Positions 5,184-22,356 of a stretch of DNA of 29,539 bases are shown here, in pieces. The first letter of the stretch is position 1. Every line of letters starts with the position of its first letter. The stretch spans positions 1 to 29,539 of the IMG/VR virus record IMGVR_UViG_2554235125_000005, one strand, 5' to 3'. The translations under genes were made by a program, and so were the position numbers. The notes below the pieces were generated by a model, which worked only from the letters and a program-made list of their open reading frames with translations, did not search any database and was not told the DNA's origin. Origin of the DNA: a virus (Duplodnaviria > Heunggongvirae > Uroviricota > Caudoviricetes).

Positions 5184-6362
5184 TTAGCTGTTGACCGATT
5201 CGGCCAGATTCACCAGATATTTATCGGTGATTCGCTGGCGCAGGGTCAGGCTTTCCAGTGGTGGAACCGGCGTATAGTCGTAGTCGATATACAGTTTCCC
5301 GGCCTTGAGGGTTTCCTTATCGTTCGATTCCTCGTCGAACCAGCATTCACCGTCCACGATGTAGCCATTTGATTTCAGCTCGCGGAATTTGGCGTTAATA
5401 CCGTCGACAATGTCACGGATAAGCGATGCGGTGATGGGCTTATCGACCGCCCACATGTGCGCCTCGGCCATCGTGTCGGCCAGAACCTGCGCGGTGCGGG
5501 TGTAGTTCTCAAACAGGAAAAGCGGGTCATCAGAGCAGGTACGGTTACCCCAGAAGCGGAAACCATCCTTGCGCACCAGCGTTGTGACCCCGGCCTCGTT
5601 GAGCAGGTCAGCATCGGTACCGGATGCCTGCAAATCCCAAAAGACTGACGCACTGATGCCGGTGACACCCTGCACGCCGACGTTAGACAGGGTTTTGTGC
5701 CAGCCGACGGTTTGGTCGATGTAGGCACGCAGACCGAGTGCGCGAGCGGTGGCGTAGGCCGTTGCGGTGGCGTTCGCGGTGGTGTCCCATGCGAGGAAGT
5801 CAGGCCAGATAACCATCAGTTCGCGCTGACTGAAATTCTCGCGATAGGCTATCGCTTCGGAAATGGTCTTACAGCCCCATGCGCTGACGTAACCAAATGC
5901 GCGTAGGCTGATACAGACCGACGCAAGTGCGACTGCGACCTCTTTGGTATCGAGACCCGGCACGCCGAGAATGCGCGGCTTAACGCCGGTGACCGCTTCG
6001 GCAGTCAACAGCGCCTTGATACCGGTGTATTTACCGTTCTCATCCGTGCCGCCGATGATGTTAGAAATGGTTTGCGCTTCCGCGTCGTCTCCGGCACCTT
6101 CTGCAACACGCACAACAACGGTGACTGGTTTTGACTGGTCGGCGATAGCCTGCAGGGAGGCAGACAGCGTGCCTTTTTTACCGGCTTTCGCAATGGCGCT
6201 CTGCACATTGGTAATCAGTACCGGCTCGTTGAGGGGAAATGTCGCGGCATCTGCATCGCTGGCCGTACAGACCATACCGACGATTGCAGTCGCGACCGTA
6301 GAAATAACACGCGTACCGTCATTGATTTCGATGACCTGCGTGCCGTGGTGAAAATCACTCAT
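5184..6362 (-). CDS. FI: Contractile tail sheath protein
   Basis: 392-aa ORF (MSDFHHGTQVIEIND...) first in the FI-FII-E-T-U-D operon. GGAG Shine-Dalgarno 8 nt upstream. Confidence 0.85.
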   Translation of the reverse strand: MSDFHHGTQVIEINDGTRVISTVATAIVGMVCTASDADAATFPLNEPVLITNVQSAIAKAGKKGTLSASLQAIADQSKPVTVVVRVAEGAGDDAEAQTISNIIGGTDENGKYTGIKALLTAEAVTGVKPRILGVPGLDTKEVAVALASVCISLRAFGYVSAWGCKTISEAIAYRENFSQRELMVIWPDFLAWDTTANATATAYATARALGLRAYIDQTVGWHKTLSNVGVQGVTGISASVFWDLQASGTDADLLNEAGVTTLVRKDGFRFWGNRTCSDDPLFLFENYTRTAQVLADTMAEAHMWAVDKPITASLIRDIVDGINAKFRELKSNGYIVDGECWFDEESNDKETLKAGKLYIDYDYTPVPPLESLTLRQRITDKYLVNLAESVNS

Positions 6363-6460
6363 CCGGTTAACTCCGTGGTTAGTGGGCGAGTGTTATTGTC
6401 CTGGCTGGTCTTGAGAGGGGCTATTTGTCGGCGATGGATAGCCGATGGCACATAAACAAA

Positions 6461-6489
6461 TCATAAAAAAGACGGGCATTAGCCCGCCC
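6461..6489 (-). terminator. Candidate intrinsic terminator downstream of the tail-fibre operon (minus strand)
   Basis: Plus strand reads AAAAAAGACGGGCATTAGCCCGCC. On the minus strand this is a 5-bp GC stem (CGGGC/GCCCG) with a 4-nt loop followed by UCUUUUUUAU, right after the G stop codon. Confidence 0.5.
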
Positions 6490-6493
6490 AGCA

Positions 6494-7090
6494 TTACTCC
6501 GGTTTAACCGGCCACTCGATACTCGGTGCCGTGGAGGTGTCGACCGCGTTCAGCGCCTGAATGTATTTCATCCATGCAATCAGGCTGACTTTGTCATCGT
6601 CGCTGATGATGCCGAGCTGCAGCTCGGTTTGCCACAGGCTGACAGTTCTTTGCGCCTCGGCCAGCAATGAGTTTTTTTTCTGTTGAGCCGCTGCAACCTG
6701 GCCGCTTTTCTGCGCATCCGCATCTGTAACCCACTCGTTACCATTCCAGCGGTCATAAGGCGTCAGCGGCTCGATGGTGGTCACATTATCAGGGTAATCA
6801 CCAAGCCCTGTCATCTCGACAGGCTGGCCGGTTTCGGTGTCATACACAGTCTCGCCCCGGTGGTCGACAACATAATCCCACCCATCAAGGCTGGCCGTGC
6901 GGCAAATGGCAAAACCTTCTTTCTCATCGACCGGCGCATCGGTACAGGAATTGGCAGGAATCCCCACGCCTACTGCAAGATACTCTGTGGAAGTCGACAG
7001 AAACTTGCGCGTTTTCCCGTCGTAGTTATAAACAGTCATATCACCGGCTTTAGTGGTAATGCCGATTTTATTCAATATCGCTTTCGCCAT
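6494..7090 (-). CDS. G: Tail fibre assembly protein
   Basis: 198-aa ORF immediately downstream of the tail fibre gene, the position of the P2 tail-fibre assembly gene G. Confidence 0.65.
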   Translation of the reverse strand: MAKAILNKIGITTKAGDMTVYNYDGKTRKFLSTSTEYLAVGVGIPANSCTDAPVDEKEGFAICRTASLDGWDYVVDHRGETVYDTETGQPVEMTGLGDYPDNVTTIEPLTPYDRWNGNEWVTDADAQKSGQVAAAQQKKNSLLAEAQRTVSLWQTELQLGIISDDDKVSLIAWMKYIQALNAVDTSTAPSIEWPVKPE

Positions 7091-9615: not shown

Positions 9616-9963
9616 TTAACTCAGTGAAACAGTGGTTGAAACTGACGCACCAGTATCGGTACGCATCCCGGTAATATCGACATACATTTCGCCAGCGCCG
9701 CCGGTCTCAAAGCTGATAGCGGTAAGCCTGATGCGCGGCTCCCACTTCTGGATAGCCGAATAGCACGCCACCATAATTTGCAGCCTGAGCGCCGGGTTTT
9801 GCGGCATATCAATCAGCGTCGACAGCAGCGAGCCATATTCACGACGCATCACCCGCGAACCGACCGGCGTCAGCAGTATGTCGCGCATGCTCTGGCTGAT
9901 GTGCTCAGTGTCGCTGATACCGAGTCCGGTATTTCGATTCATACCCTGATAGCGCACTGTCAT
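9616..9963 (-). CDS. W: Baseplate protein W (gp25-like)
   Basis: 115-aa ORF between V and J; P2 gpW size and position. Confidence 0.8.
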   Translation of the reverse strand: MTVRYQGMNRNTGLGISDTEHISQSMRDILLTPVGSRVMRREYGSLLSTLIDMPQNPALRLQIMVACYSAIQKWEPRIRLTAISFETGGAGEMYVDITGMRTDTGASVSTTVSLS

Positions 9964-10595
9964 ATCGGCGCCCCCGTCGTCCCGCCGCTGTCGCCGGGGT
10001 GTTTATGGGTATGGAGTACCTTGCCATTTGACGACAGTGACCCGCCGGTATGCTCAATGTTGCCTTTCATCGTGCCGCCTTTTTGCACCTCAAGCGTCGT
10101 CGTCGTTAGCTTGTTGGTGCAAATCACCTCCGGGGTGTCGAGGGTGATACTGGTTGAGGCTTTCACCAGTACCAGCGGTACGGTTGCGATGATGGATTCC
10201 GATGCCGTCACGTCGGCCGTTTTTATGCCGCTGACCGTCAGCGCACTGGTCTCGGGCTCGTACTCAATGACCGCACCATCAGGGAAAACCACATGCCACG
10301 CATCCGCCGAGGCTGACGGGGCGGGGTTATCGTCGGAGAAAATACCAGGCAACACGAAAGCGGTATCAAGCTCGCCACCGATTGCCAGCAGCAGAACCTG
10401 CTCACCGACCGAGGGAGCCCACCACGTCCGCGAACGACCGGCTCGGGTGGTCAGCCAGTTCAGCCATGTAGTCTGGATCCCGCCGCTTTGTACGCGGCAC
10501 AGCCCCTGCACGGTATCGACCTCAGTCACTACGCCTGAGCGGATGAGGTTGCGAATCGCACGCGCTAGCTCTTGGATTGAAGATAGTGTTTTCAT
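9960..10595 (-). CDS. V: Baseplate spike / assembly protein V
   Basis: Track ORF is 246 aa; the internal Met (MKTLSSIQELARAIRNLI...) gives about 211 aa, matching P2 gpV length and N-terminus as I recall them. Start refined by eye. Confidence 0.75.
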   Translation of the reverse strand: MKTLSSIQELARAIRNLIRSGVVTEVDTVQGLCRVQSGGIQTTWLNWLTTRAGRSRTWWAPSVGEQVLLLAIGGELDTAFVLPGIFSDDNPAPSASADAWHVVFPDGAVIEYEPETSALTVSGIKTADVTASESIIATVPLVLVKASTSITLDTPEVICTNKLTTTTLEVQKGGTMKGNIEHTGGSLSSNGKVLHTHKHPGDSGGTTGAPI

Positions 10596-10723
10596 TTCGC
10601 TATCATTCACCAAGCAAACAATCATTCCAAACTGGATCAAATGTCTGATCTTTGGTACAAAAAGCATTTGGCAAGGTAATCCTGTCGATAGCAAAGACAT
10701 ATGTGTTATTGAGCGAGGGAATT
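10596..10723. promoter_or_regulatory. Divergent promoter region: late promoter for V operon (minus) and promoter of the cargo cassette (plus)
   Basis: Intergenic between divergently oriented V and the AT-rich cassette. No promoter elements confidently identified. Confidence 0.3.
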
Positions 10724-11236
10724 GTGAACTTTAATGCTTTAAAACCCAGCATTTCGTCTGCTGCTATAGGTGGTGCGGGCTTCTTATCTGCATTAGTAAC
10801 TATGTTTGTAAACGTTCAATCTGAGCTATCGGTTAAATGGTTTATATTTTTAACATGGTTAAGCATAACTATTTTTATTCTTTTGATTAAGCGTATTGAT
10901 GATCTTGAAAAAGAGAACGGAAAATCTTTTCCTGCACCATATGAAAAGCCAATTAAAATATTAAGTGGTGATGGGCTTATTCTGATAAAGAAAAACGCCA
11001 ATTTCTCTAACAATATAATAGTTGGCTGCTATCTTATTAATGATGAATTTGAAAAGATCGCATTTTCAGCACACGTCTATCACATCCAGGAAAATTTATT
11101 GCAGTTAAAAATAATTGATAGTTATTGTACAGAAGAAGAGCTTGATTTAATAAATGCAAAGGGTGCAAGCTCAATGTTAATTGTCAGGCCTAACATACCT
11201 TACGAATTACTCGAAAAGTTTGGAGAGAGAGACTAA
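10724..11236 (+). CDS. Hypothetical membrane protein (two predicted TM helices plus about 110-aa soluble domain), cargo gene 1
   Basis: GTG start preceded by GAGGGA. Hydrophobic stretches SISSAAIGGAGFLSALVTMFV and WFIFLTWLSITIFILLI. AT-rich codon usage unlike flanking phage genes. No family recognised. The track ORF begins at a TTG at 10652 without a Shine-Dalgarno. Confidence 0.45.
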   Translation: MNFNALKPSISSAAIGGAGFLSALVTMFVNVQSELSVKWFIFLTWLSITIFILLIKRIDDLEKENGKSFPAPYEKPIKILSGDGLILIKKNANFSNNIIVGCYLINDEFEKIAFSAHVYHIQENLLQLKIIDSYCTEEELDLINAKGASSMLIVRPNIPYELLEKFGERD

Positions 11237-11658
11237 TGTCTGAACTATATGATGCAAAAATTATTCATATCAACAACGATTTCACTAAATTTGTTATCAA
11301 TAAGGGTGAGAATGGAAATATACGTGACGGGATGGTATTTTTAATTTATTCACTTGGGGAAAATATTATAGATCCTGACACAGGAATAGATTTAGGCCGA
11401 CTTGAAATAGTAAAAGGTGAAGCTATTGTACATCACATACAAGAGAAAATGACTACATTAATTTCGCGTGAATTCATAGAAGAGCCAGTAAAGGAAGAAA
11501 CCATATATAAACGTGAGATTTTCGCGCATCGCAGATTAATTAGCGATCTCTATGAGGGGGTCCGTACTCCTGCGAAAAAAGTGAGAGTCTCCCCAGAGAA
11601 AAAAATCAAGCCTCTTTTAGATGTAAAAATAGGGGATTATGTTAGAAGAGTGAAGTGA
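11236..11658 (+). CDS. Hypothetical soluble protein (140 aa), cargo gene 2
   Basis: ATG overlaps the gene 1 stop (TAATG), implying translational coupling. GGAGAGAGAGA upstream. AT-rich. Possibly a small beta-barrel-like fold (IRDGMVFLIY and KIGDYVRRV segments), but this is a guess. Confidence 0.5.
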   Translation: MSELYDAKIIHINNDFTKFVINKGENGNIRDGMVFLIYSLGENIIDPDTGIDLGRLEIVKGEAIVHHIQEKMTTLISREFIEEPVKEETIYKREIFAHRRLISDLYEGVRTPAKKVRVSPEKKIKPLLDVKIGDYVRRVK

Positions 11659-11686
11659 TTAAACAATCACTTCATACATAGTACTG

Positions 11687-12136
11687 TTAACCGTGAAGAT
11701 GGGAAATAATAATATTCAATATGTTGTTATTCTCCTCATGTGAAGCGCCGAGCAACGGGCGCGCCTCGTACTGCACATCCCGGGTGTTACGGTTTGGCCG
11801 GTCTTTTAGGCCGTACTGATGCACCCGCGCCATGCGCTGCACCTTGCTGGTAAAGTCCACCACCGCCGCACTGTCGCTGCCTTTGGCTTTCATAAAGCGA
11901 TTGGTGCGCAGTTTGGCGAACATTTCACGCTTAATCCGACCTTTCTTGCCCCGCACCGGCTGGCGCTTTCGTGCCGAATACGGAGTGCCGTCGGGTGCCT
12001 GCTGGCGCTTGATGCGCTGCTGCTGACTGGTACGCAACTTTTTCGCAATCTCAGCCGCCATTTGCCGACGCGCCGCCGGTGACAGGCTGGCAATCAGACC
12101 GGCAAGACGTTCCTGCAGTGCGGTTAACTCACTCAT
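11687..12136 (-). CDS. S: Tail completion / virion morphogenesis protein S
   Basis: 149-aa ORF with the conserved core PVRGKKGRIKREMFAKLRT...VQRMARVHQYGLKDRPNRN of the P2 gpS family, as I recall it. Confidence 0.75.
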   Translation of the reverse strand: MSELTALQERLAGLIASLSPAARRQMAAEIAKKLRTSQQQRIKRQQAPDGTPYSARKRQPVRGKKGRIKREMFAKLRTNRFMKAKGSDSAAVVDFTSKVQRMARVHQYGLKDRPNRNTRDVQYEARPLLGASHEENNNILNIIISHLHG

Positions 12137-20480: not shown

Positions 20481-21704
20481 TTAAACTTCGTCTTTACTAT
20501 TTATCATTCTGATATAACTAGGCATACGAGGATCTGAAATTTTATATACCCCTCTAGCTGCCTTTGTAAGGATCGCTCCTTTATCAGCCCTAGTAAAACG
20601 CCCAATATAGTTACTCATGTGATAGTTACTTAATGAAATTCCCGTATCTTCTCGAATTTGGGTAATCCATTCTTGAATGGTAAATTTATTATCTTTGAAT
20701 TTGGCTGCTGCATAAAGTATTGATGGATAAACATCAGTCCTGGATGAAGTAACTGCGTTCTCATAGTCTCTTTTAAGTTGTCCCTCGGTGTTTACTACTG
20801 CTCGCCTCAAAGCTTCAGGAAGAATGTCGGAATTTACTTCGCTTTTACCAGATGATAATACTATATCTGCAGATTCCTTTCCTATAAGATGCGTGAAATA
20901 TGGAAAACCATTGCTAATTTCAACTATAGAGTTTTTAACGTCACTACTAAATGTTATACCCAAGCCACGCTCGCCAGTCTCAATTATTTCATGTAAATAT
21001 TTATCTTCAATTCGAGAGAGTTGAATTTCATGGAGGCATCTGTTCACAGAAGGATGACCTGCTATCAACGAAGCACCGTCACTGGAAATGCCAACTAATA
21101 AAATCTTCAAAGGACTATTGGAATCGCTAAGTTGTTTAACAAACTCAGCGACATCATGCTTAACGTCATCACTGACAACATCAAATTCATCTATTAAAAG
21201 TATTGCATTCAATTCTTCAAGCGCAAAACAGGCTTTACTTGGAGTAAGATCTTCTTTTTCTATCGTGATTTTCTCTTCGGCAGAAACGTCCGCTCTAAAT
21301 AATTTCAAAACATTAAGGCCAACACCTGCTTTTTTAGTAGTCTCTCTTTTATTTGCGGCATATTCACTATCAATAAATATAGCTGGCCTTGCAATAATAT
21401 CTTTGAATTTTGTTTTTTTATCACATCGCACTACAAAAATATTACTAGGTAACACACCTTCATTTTTCCCTCCCTCTAAAGTAGATAAGGCGAGCGAGCT
21501 TTTCCCAATCCCTCTCTCTCCATAAATCATACAATGCTTGCCATCAGTAGTTAAGGTATCGAGGATATGTTCCACCTCGTTATTACGTCCTTTCAAATGG
21601 GTAGGTGCCTCAATAGGTTTAGAGGGTGTAAAATATAAATCAACATTTTTAATTTTATTTTTTTTTGCTTTAAATTTACTGAATATGCTGCTAGTAGTCG
21701 TCAT
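20481..21704 (-). CDS. P-loop NTPase of unknown function (AAA+/STAND-like with C-terminal winged-helix-like region), cargo gene
   Basis: 407-aa ORF with Walker A GERGIGKS and Walker B ILLIDEFD about 100 residues apart. No ABC signature. AGGA Shine-Dalgarno. Strongly AT-rich codon usage. Sits between portal gene and cos. Confidence 0.6.
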   Translation of the reverse strand: MTTTSSIFSKFKAKKNKIKNVDLYFTPSKPIEAPTHLKGRNNEVEHILDTLTTDGKHCMIYGERGIGKSSLALSTLEGGKNEGVLPSNIFVVRCDKKTKFKDIIARPAIFIDSEYAANKRETTKKAGVGLNVLKLFRADVSAEEKITIEKEDLTPSKACFALEELNAILLIDEFDVVSDDVKHDVAEFVKQLSDSNSPLKILLVGISSDGASLIAGHPSVNRCLHEIQLSRIEDKYLHEIIETGERGLGITFSSDVKNSIVEISNGFPYFTHLIGKESADIVLSSGKSEVNSDILPEALRRAVVNTEGQLKRDYENAVTSSRTDVYPSILYAAAKFKDNKFTIQEWITQIREDTGISLSNYHMSNYIGRFTRADKGAILTKAARGVYKISDPRMPSYIRMINSKDEV

Positions 21705-21821
21705 TTCCGCATCCTATTGCAAAAAGTTAACTTATTAAAAGAAAAATTCAGAGTAAGTGCAATACCTATTATTCGGAGCTTGTCACAAGATTCACTACTG
21801 AAGTGTAACCGCTGGCGCGCA

Positions 21822-21840
21822 ATGCTTTCCCCGCCACGCC
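21822..21840 (-). other. cos: cos-type cohesive-end site (19-mer)
   Basis: Plus strand ATGCTTTCCCCGCCACGCC is the reverse complement of GGCGTGGCGGGGAAAGCAT, which matches the P2/186 19-nt cohesive end as I recall it. Expected position for a prophage (between Q and the A side). Confidence 0.6.
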
Positions 21841-21999
21841 TGCCCGCTTTATGGGGCGGTTTTAATGCAGTTGCATGACTACTCTGGATCCGCTTCAGCT
21901 CTGGCGGCGCACGGCCAGAACGGGCAATCCCGGCGCATGCAAAACCATGCACCTGTTGCATGCACGACTAAAAAACGGGGTAATCGCGGAAAAATGGCA

Positions 22000-22025
22000 T
22001 AAAAAACCGGCATTCACGGTGCCGG
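22000..22025 (-). terminator. Candidate intrinsic terminator ending the SOS-operon transcript before cos (minus strand)
   Basis: Plus strand AAAAAACCGGCATTCACGGTGCCGG. On the minus strand a 6-bp GC-rich stem (CCGGCA/TGCCGG), 7-nt loop, then UUUUUUAU. Confidence 0.45.
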
Positions 22026-22119
22026 TTTGGTGTCAATCTGGTAACCAGCTAACGCCTCGCGGGGCTCGTTGTTCAACCCCGCCAGCACTGAAAGCAAGTT
22101 TCAGCACCGGCGGCGTTTG

Positions 22120-22356
22120 CTATCGTCGGCGGGGCGGCGGAATAATCGGACCTCTCGCCGGTGTAAACGCCTCAATTTTCGGATTACTAATATCGTACAG
22201 CCTGCCGTAATTATCCCTGACTATTTCGGCGCACCCGACCAGCTCGGCGGGTGACAAATTCTCATTGACCATTATCCGCTGCAGGCGATGAACGATAGCC
22301 ATTAACTTAATATTTCTTGTCTGGTGCTGCGGTATTTCACTTGGTAGTCGATGCAT
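22120..22356 (-). CDS. Hypothetical protein (78 aa)
   Basis: ORF with GAGGGTGA upstream of its ATG and a Pro/Arg-rich C-terminus. Flanked by two related 60-bp repeats. No family recognised; could be non-coding. Confidence 0.3.
   Translation of the reverse strand: MHRLPSEIPQHQTRNIKLMAIVHRLQRIMVNENLSPAELVGCAEIVRDNYGRLYDISNPKIEAFTPARGPIIPPPRRR

Follow-up and report, generated by a model that had tools for sequence, protein, structure and literature searches.

The viral record IMGVR_UViG_2554235125_000005, analysed here over its whole length of 29,539 nucleotides (the window), is a 186/P2-like prophage that carries two small genes between its late genes V and S. The gene pair was horizontally acquired, has an orientation of its own and is translationally coupled. 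We put the chances at about even that the pair is a module for phage exclusion or abortive infection, expressed from the prophage and acting at the inner membrane. This reading follows from where the pair is carried. Like conflict systems, it is found in slots for self-contained accessory genes (morons), in lysogeny modules, on tiny plasmids and inside restriction-modification (R-M) operons. The variability of the V/S junction, the presence of a relative of the defence gene PD-T4-7 at that junction and the conflict-type contexts provide circumstantial support for defence. A wider proposal falls somewhat short of even chances. It holds that the pair is the Escherichia coli member of a widespread, undescribed two-gene system against phages or mobile elements, in which paralogous FlgT_C/HAS-type barrels are combined with a hairpin as membrane effector, and that the S/V slot is a third defence hotspot of P2-like phages beside the TO region and Z/fun. 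The novelty lies in the protein families. The role, as accessory cargo of a variable prophage locus, is familiar.

Both genes are intact and conserved. Gene 1 (10724-11236, plus strand) encodes 170 amino acids (aa) from a GTG start inside the open reading frame (ORF) 10652-11236, and gene 2 (11236-11658, plus strand) encodes a soluble protein of 140 aa. As the initial annotation of this DNA had read from the letters, gene 2 starts on the stop codon of gene 1, with the ATG overlapping the TAA by one base (TAATG). The PGAP annotation pipeline also starts gene 1 at GTG 10724 in the EC6622 prophage of E. coli, whose V/S locus is 99.9% identical to that of the window. The start is preceded by the Shine-Dalgarno sequence GAGGGA (10715-10720, plus strand), and both elements are shared with two diverged cassettes, L008 and L012, whose proteins are 50-72% identical. 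Between diverged cassettes of both genes, nonsynonymous divergence (pN) is 0.17-0.33 against a synonymous divergence (pS) of 0.64-0.87, and dN/dS is ~0.1-0.3 where synonymous sites are unsaturated. Because pN is far below pS and the pair is kept across phyla, both ORFs are real genes under purifying selection. Similarity among the cassettes is discordant between the two genes. The window (10724-11658) and L008 (5489-6420) share 72% identity for gene 1 and 60% for gene 2, while L008 and L012 (5490-6420) share 51% for gene 1 and 62% for gene 2, which suggests recombination between the two genes. An Rfam search of the window returned no RNA family.

The base composition of the pair differs strongly from that of the phage. 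The GC content is 0.34 for the gene pair, 0.59 for V, 0.57 for S and 0.52 for the whole window. Measured in 300-nt segments, GC is 0.32-0.35 over 10600-11500 and 0.55-0.63 in the flanks, and the AT-rich tract as a whole (10596-11746) has 32-35% GC against ~59% in its flanks. The initial description of an AT-rich tract with two plus-strand genes between minus-strand V and S is borne out (0.34 against ~0.59). The extreme AT content, together with promoter and terminator scans that do not rise above background, would fit decaying or non-functional acquired DNA with fortuitous ORFs. However, both ORFs are intact with pN far below pS among copies of only 50-72% identity, the Shine-Dalgarno sequence and start codon are kept, the fold predictions are confident, and the top matches listed from a family of thousands of clusters include full-length ones. 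This conservation effectively refutes the idea of junk DNA.

The locus itself is a known site of gene acquisition. In phage 186 and many E. coli prophages, the V/S junction is empty and consists of a 68-bp spacer. The initial annotation held V and S to be adjacent in P2, and this adjacency is found in phage 186, whereas in the P2 record the two genes are separated by a nonessential antisense gene, Orf30 (261 aa), which has the O-operon terminator on one side and the activator site of the V promoter on the other. The further claim that V/S is not a known accessory locus of P2 does not stand either. The orf30 site, together with the TO region and Z/fun, constitutes three sites of horizontally acquired genes in P2-like phages (PMC3091744), and phage R18C carries another ORF at the orf30 site (PMC6823313). 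Two papers that define P2 defence hotspots cover only the cos-adjacent TO and the Z/fun loci, and leave the S/V site unmentioned (PMC9122126, PMC9519451). The S/V slot is already known, yet its cargo is functionally blank. Literature searches using the RefSeq accessions of the pair, FlgT or orf30 with anti-phage terms, and Peduoviridae hotspots yielded no description of the pair or of S/V as a defence hotspot.

Comparing the V/S junction across related prophages, as had been proposed initially, revealed that it is either empty or occupied by different cargo. The survey covered complete E. coli genomes with V/S flanks at least 90% identical to the window. The gene pair of the window was found at the junction in 3 of 5426 complete E. 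coli genomes, and at least five unrelated alternative cargos, all AT-rich (GC 0.30-0.39), occupy the site elsewhere. These include a pentapeptide-repeat protein whose N-terminus is weakly SLATT-like (E 0.003; L003 1834-2670), a 287-aa protein (L002 1885-2748 in E. coli Ecol_545; also H92-H95), a 347-aa protein on the late-gene strand (L030 492-1535), a 261-aa UPF0489 protein (L031 467-1252), and a 160-aa protein followed by a HIT-family protein with an 8-bp overlap (L032 3769-4888). One cargo is disrupted by the insertion sequence IS21. The cargos have no sequence relation to one another or to the gene pair, and a blastp comparison of the pair with P2 Orf30 produced no match at E<=10. The PADLOC model of PD-T4-7, a validated abortive-infection defence gene (Vassallo et al. 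2022; PMC9519451), matches the N-terminal half of the 287-aa cargo (E 4.8e-9). The slot can therefore carry defence cargo. Prophages of Enterobacter, Citrobacter and Klebsiella carry the pair at the same V/S slot with 50-75% amino-acid identity. The pair has the attributes of slot cargo, being placed between S and V homologues, dispensable and of foreign base composition.

The ends of the cassette point to exchange within the conserved flanks. The left anchor is the baseplate spike gene gpV (9960-10595, minus strand), recognized by the Pfam families Phage_base_V (8.6e-19), Phage_spike (7e-28) and Apex as well as by the PGAP annotation of the EC6622 prophage. The right anchor is the tail-completion gene gpS (11687-12136, minus strand; Pfam Phage_tail_S, 2e-35). 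The right recombination boundary lies in the AT-rich 3' end of gpS, which covers its ~20 last codons (11687-11746, minus strand) and has a GC content of 0.32 against 0.57 for all of S. This end diverges from phage 186 and E. coli I4 as far as the conserved GAGCAACGGGC. The AT-rich tract takes in the end of S, and V departs from phage 186 in its first codons, so cassettes swap through recombination within the anchor genes V and S. The extent of the cargo drawn in the initial annotation holds for the two genes and needs correction at both edges. The left ~130 bp (10596-10723) are regulatory and lie outside the coding sequence of the cargo, and the AT-rich tract reaches into S to 11746. An imperfect 17-nt direct repeat (AAACAATCA...) at 10616-10632 and 11661-11677 flanks both genes with a spacing of 1045 bp. 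We rejected it as an insertion scar, since it is only 82% identical and AT-rich, and the true boundaries are within V and S. The repeat is probably a chance match in AT-rich DNA.

The two proteins combine a membrane hairpin with a common type of soluble domain. Hydropathy identifies two N-terminal transmembrane (TM) segments in gene 1 and in its homologues, and the AlphaFold model of gene 1 (predicted local distance difference test, pLDDT, 74.8) has helices at residues 10-31 and 37-65 followed by a beta-barrel. Both agree with the two TM helices called initially. The resulting layout is a TM hairpin at ~10-31 and 37-60 and a beta-barrel at ~75-160. Over 28 homologues of gene 1, lysine and arginine residues total 51 before the first TM segment, 28 in the short loop and 77 after the second. 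Because of this bias, gene 1 is predicted to form an inner-membrane hairpin with both termini inside (N-in/C-in) and with the barrel in the cytoplasm. Gene 2 has no hydrophobic segment and no signal peptide. Its model (pLDDT 79.8) contains a barrel at residues 7-91 and a variable disordered loop at 95-110, and the C-terminal strands fold back against the barrel. In structure comparison, both models match the same barrels of the FlgT_C/HAS type. As modelled, the soluble parts of both proteins are FlgT_C/HAS-type beta-barrels with the fold of the FlgT C-terminal barrel.

Sequence comparisons bear on the same fold. The profile of the gene 2 family weakly matches TsaP among PDB sequences (E 6e-4), and the gene 1 profile has no match there. 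Gene 2 of the window does not match the Pfam family FlgT_C (PF16538) at E<=1. The gene 2 family member P0045 reaches 29.2 bits against FlgT_C and so passes the gathering threshold of 27 bits. Among nine further members that were tested, seven have scores of 14.6-25.6 bits, which fall short of it. A V-x-H/N-x-Q strand is common to both families of the pair (hhalign E 9.5e-4, at a probability of only 22%). The residues D46, T49, E57, K60 and Q69 of gene 2 and E110, H120 and Q122 of gene 1 are invariant. The barrels of gene 1 and gene 2 are probably paralogous, with weak support from hhalign. Neither protein belongs to a named family, as had been stated at the outset, and scans against Pfam, PHROGs, NCBIfam and PADLOC gave no meaningful match for either. 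Matches to phrog_1916 (E 0.075) and EppA (E 0.03) were dismissed as noise.

The family behind the pair is large and mostly found as a pair. With clusters drawn at 50% identity, the gene 2 profile retrieves 3045 of them at E<=1e-3, of which 1255 remain at E<=1e-10. The 150 top matches listed are all ~112-173 aa long, and the members whose names were checked are all hypothetical proteins. A partner with two TM segments and a barrel is encoded directly upstream on the same strand, often overlapping, in ~23 of 31 genomic or plasmid loci, and directly upstream of gene 2 in 17 of 18 IMG/VR viral contigs. Nearly all of these upstream partners match the gene 1 hidden Markov model, the weakest only marginally, and a few pairs among the loci examined are decayed. 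Hosts include Enterobacteriaceae, Cyanobacteria, Melainabacteria, Clostridia, Fibrobacter, Deltaproteobacteria, Leptospiraceae and Cytophagales, as well as a symbiont of the Rickettsiales and a Methanotrichaceae archaeon known from a metagenome-assembled genome (MAG). A word-indexed search for homologues, run with a profile of 28 gene 1 sequences, added only six new proteins and revealed zero domain fusions.

The pair occurs in several genomic contexts beyond the V/S slot. Low-GC temperate phages carry it in the lysogeny module, co-oriented with a cI-like repressor and the integrase. Among 93 neighbour proteins on 10 non-redundant viral contigs, there are ten HTH_3 proteins, six large serine recombinases, three antirepressors and one Abi_2 protein. 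On plasmids, the pair is among very few cargo genes, between mobQ and repM in Psychrobacter (7.2 kb) and next to VapC/Phd in Megaera (11.5 kb), and it adjoins a DUF262 gene on a 34-kb Clostridium plasmid. On chromosomal islands, the pair adjoins a BsoBI endonuclease and is elsewhere near TerB, HicAB and ParE. In two Melainabacteria-type genomes (L036 2834-7949; L037 2985-8005), gene 1 and gene 2 are embedded in a type III R-M operon in the order mod-g1-g2-res, with all four genes on one strand and gaps of a few nucleotides. The initial annotation saw in the locus the typical look of a defence module. The horizontally acquired and independently oriented pair stands, the contexts and the PD-T4-7 relative are circumstantial evidence, and the lack of a PADLOC match counts against this view.

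Much of the same evidence would suit a toxin-antitoxin-like addiction module that has no anti-phage role. The two-TM protein would be the toxin and the soluble protein its neutralizer, together stabilizing the prophage, plasmid or R-M system that carries them. Two small overlapping genes on mobile DNA, other toxin-antitoxin genes nearby and the place of the pair among the very few cargo genes of the two small plasmids all accord with this. Gene 2 occurs alone or with a decayed gene 1 in L039, L041, L042, L051 and L059, as orphan antitoxins would, and the TM hairpin is conserved in sequence with a small-xxx-small spacing. However, the putative toxin gene comes first and the two genes are nearly equal in size, which is atypical of classical type II modules. 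A DNA-binding domain for autoregulation is absent, and the proteins look paralogous, which would be unusual for a toxin and its antitoxin. We consider addiction alone an unlikely explanation. Toxin-antitoxin function and abortive infection are compatible, so the explanation overlaps with the exclusion module that we favour.

If the pair is an exclusion or abortive-infection module, its action could be pictured as follows. The operon would be a self-contained moron that reached the S/V slot from a low-GC source through recombination in the ends of S and V. Through its hairpin, gene 1 would keep its barrel at the inner membrane on the cytoplasmic side, and gene 2 would be a barrel free in the cytoplasm. 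The two proteins may form a membrane-associated complex, because barrels of the FlgT_C, HAS and F1-crown type typically assemble edge-to-edge into rings. Expressed from the prophage, the pair would exclude other phages or mobile elements, with the soluble gene 2 protein perhaps serving as a sensor or restraint. The hairpin protein might permeabilize or depolarize the membrane, leading to abortive infection similar to RexAB. Alternatively, the complex might block genome entry at the inner membrane, as Sie proteins do.

Several observations weigh against such a module. No catalytic or known effector domain is recognizable in either protein, and the barrel fold is a generic scaffold of flagellar, pilus, MreC and ATPase proteins. 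PADLOC-DB v2.0.0 (2023) contains zero families that match either protein at E<=1, with later catalogues lying outside this search. A tblastn search against 50,697 deposited phage genomes showed the pair to be absent from all of them. Gene 2 occurs alone in Fibrobacter, in a Clostridiales MAG and in a Planctomycetota MAG. Scans of the locus for consensus promoters and terminators gave nothing above shuffled sequences, and an operon of 34% GC may be silenced by H-NS in E. coli. In five cyanobacterial genomes (L039, L043, L047, L050 and L053, from Aphanothece, Microcystis, Microcoleus, Tychonema and one uncultured cyanobacterium), the magnesium chelatase gene chlH comes immediately before the pair. 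This position looks conserved and chromosomal, and a purely mobile-defence reading does not account for it. Elsewhere, pyruvate kinase and ABC ATPase genes are housekeeping neighbours, and such mixed neighbourhoods suit a housekeeping role equally well.

The chlH linkage and the housekeeping neighbours favour a module of lysogenic conversion or of the cell envelope without a role in conflict. The pair could be a scaffold similar to NfeD/SPFH pairs or could modulate flagellar or type IV pilus machinery or the synthesis of the cell wall. The barrels resemble those of FlgT, TsaP and MreC. The combination of TM helices and a cytoplasmic barrel is reminiscent of short NfeD proteins, and two Band_7/SPFH genes are found among 147 neighbours of the pair. 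In contrast, the barrels of FlgT, TsaP and MreC are periplasmic, whereas those of the pair are predicted to be cytoplasmic, with gene 2 lacking a signal peptide. None of the window proteins matches the Pfam families NfeD, MreC or PilZ. The patchy and mobile distribution, with 3 of 5426 E. coli genomes and otherwise phages, plasmids and R-M operons, is also at odds with an envelope function. We regard such a function as rather improbable, and the exclusion or abortive-infection module remains our preferred reading.

The region between V and gene 1 (10596-10723) is a control region that comprises the late-promoter region of V and, presumably, the promoter of the pair. When three diverged cassettes are aligned, conservation covers the V-proximal part and the Shine-Dalgarno sequence with its GTG, and leaves out 10660-10710. 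A TGT-N12-ACA dyad (10642-10659), centred ~55 nt upstream of the ATG of V, is probably the Ogr/B-type late-activator site of the V promoter, judging from its sequence and position. The annotated activator site of the P2 promoter pV has a similar sequence at a distance of ~57 nt, but its dyad is TGT-N11-ACA. The dyad of the window is kept in the Enterobacter and Citrobacter cassettes. The motif is not enriched in the window (3 found against 6.4 expected), and it was rejected as a window-wide marker of late promoters as its count is not above chance. Divergent activation of gene 1 by a symmetric Ogr-type site was likewise dropped, as the spacing between site and gene varies, with a 16-nt deletion in L012. 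The sole plus-strand match to a sigma-70-like consensus in the control region (10577-10606; 9/12) is no better than in shuffled sequences.

The location between tail genes, with the 5' end abutting the late-activator site of the V promoter, could suggest that the pair helps the lytic cycle of the phage itself, for instance by taking part in tail or baseplate assembly, timing lysis or regulating the V operon. A membrane protein with two helices is also formally holin-like. However, the pair is antisense to both late operons. Phage 186 and most related prophages lack it, and so does every deposited phage genome searched. The prophage already encodes a holin, an endolysin and spanins. The holin, endolysin and LysB/C cassette is located at ~12.5-13.9 kb on the minus strand, and the pair is antisense to it and missing from relatives. 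The same pair also occurs outside phages, in plasmids, R-M operons and an archaeal MAG, and P2 Orf30 at this slot is annotated as nonessential. We judge a lytic helper very unlikely.

At the end of the pair, a perfect 10-bp inverted repeat (11651-11674) spans the stop codon of gene 2. Its predicted RNA fold has -12.8 kcal/mol on the plus strand (z -2.7) and -11.6 kcal/mol on the minus strand (z -2.3). The terminator scan makes no call at this repeat, which has no T-run. The repeat is a candidate for a weak bidirectional terminator. Other variants of the cassette have hairpins of their own at this place, and the hairpin of L008 includes a T-run.

The two other accessory loci of the prophage differ in their content. 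The cos-adjacent TO hotspot beside the portal gene (20481-22356) encodes a 407-aa AAA ATPase on the minus strand (20481-21704), with a weak PADLOC match to the candidate system PDC-S59 (E 1.8e-7), and small ORFs at 21701-21961 and 22120-22356. The ATPase locus is a possible second defence cargo of the prophage. The Z/fun slot (6363-6493), between the tail sheath gene (5184-6362) and the tail-fibre assembly gene (6494-7090), is essentially empty with 131 bp. In the EC6622 prophage, the same slot contains ~0.8 kb of extra sequence with a recombinase remnant and two hypothetical genes. Since the two prophages differ at Z/fun while being 99.9% identical at V/S, the accessory slots turn over independently in this phage lineage.

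If the pair does exclude phages, it would represent a compact defence system of ~0.9 kb that lacks an enzymatic domain. The ~3000 clusters of its family, unnamed small proteins from across the bacteria and at least one archaeal MAG, would thereby gain a function. The orf30 site of P2-like phages would become a third hotspot that can be mined, and searches anchored on gpS and gpV would provide further candidates, including the pentapeptide-repeat protein, the HIT-family pair, the 347-aa protein and the UPF0489 protein. The embedding between mod and res would add a new case of an accessory module carried within a restriction system. If the pair does not exclude phages, it would still be a conserved membrane-associated pair, of modest interest. 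The pair is a well-delimited candidate with a large unnamed family. Many such candidates exist, and this one comes without an enzymatic clue to its mechanism.

Among known systems, RexAB is similar in being a two-gene cassette of a temperate phage that encodes a small polytopic inner-membrane protein and a soluble partner. Low-GC phages carry the pair beside the repressor gene and co-oriented with it, as rexAB is with cI. In contrast, RexB has four TM helices and gene 1 two, gene order and sizes differ, both proteins of the pair share a beta-barrel domain, and depolarization by the pair would be conjectural. PADLOC, Pfam and PHROGs gave no match for the pair that would indicate homology to RexA or RexB. 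The superinfection-exclusion proteins Sie2009 of lactococcal phages and Ltp of Streptococcus thermophilus phage TP-J34 are small and associated with the membrane. Their genes lie between those of integrase and repressor and are expressed in the prophage state, and gp30/gp31 of the mycobacteriophage Butters combine a membrane protein with a cytoplasmic partner. The pair resembles these systems through its location in the lysogeny modules of low-GC phages, and no sequence relation to them is known. Sie2009 and Ltp are each encoded by one gene and have extracellular domains, whereas a cytoplasmic location is predicted for the barrel of the pair.

The fold itself is shared with FlgT_C (PF16538), TsaP, MreC, HerA-HAS and the N-terminal barrels of F1/V1-ATPases. 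The known barrels of this type are domains of large periplasmic or ATPase proteins, whereas in the pair, with a predicted cytoplasmic location, one barrel forms the entire soluble protein and the other is joined to a TM hairpin alone. A comparison with NfeD/SPFH pairs found no NfeD match, and the partner in the pair is a barrel protein and not an SPFH protein. PD-T4-7 is a single gene unrelated to the pair in sequence, but a relative is found in the V/S slot of other 186-like prophages of E. coli. The P2 Orf30 locus has one gene where the window has two and shares no sequence similarity with them. The two loci are nonetheless alike in occupying the S/V slot in antisense orientation, in having the 5' end beside the pV activator site and the 3' end beside the O-operon terminator, and in a GC content of 0.34 in both.

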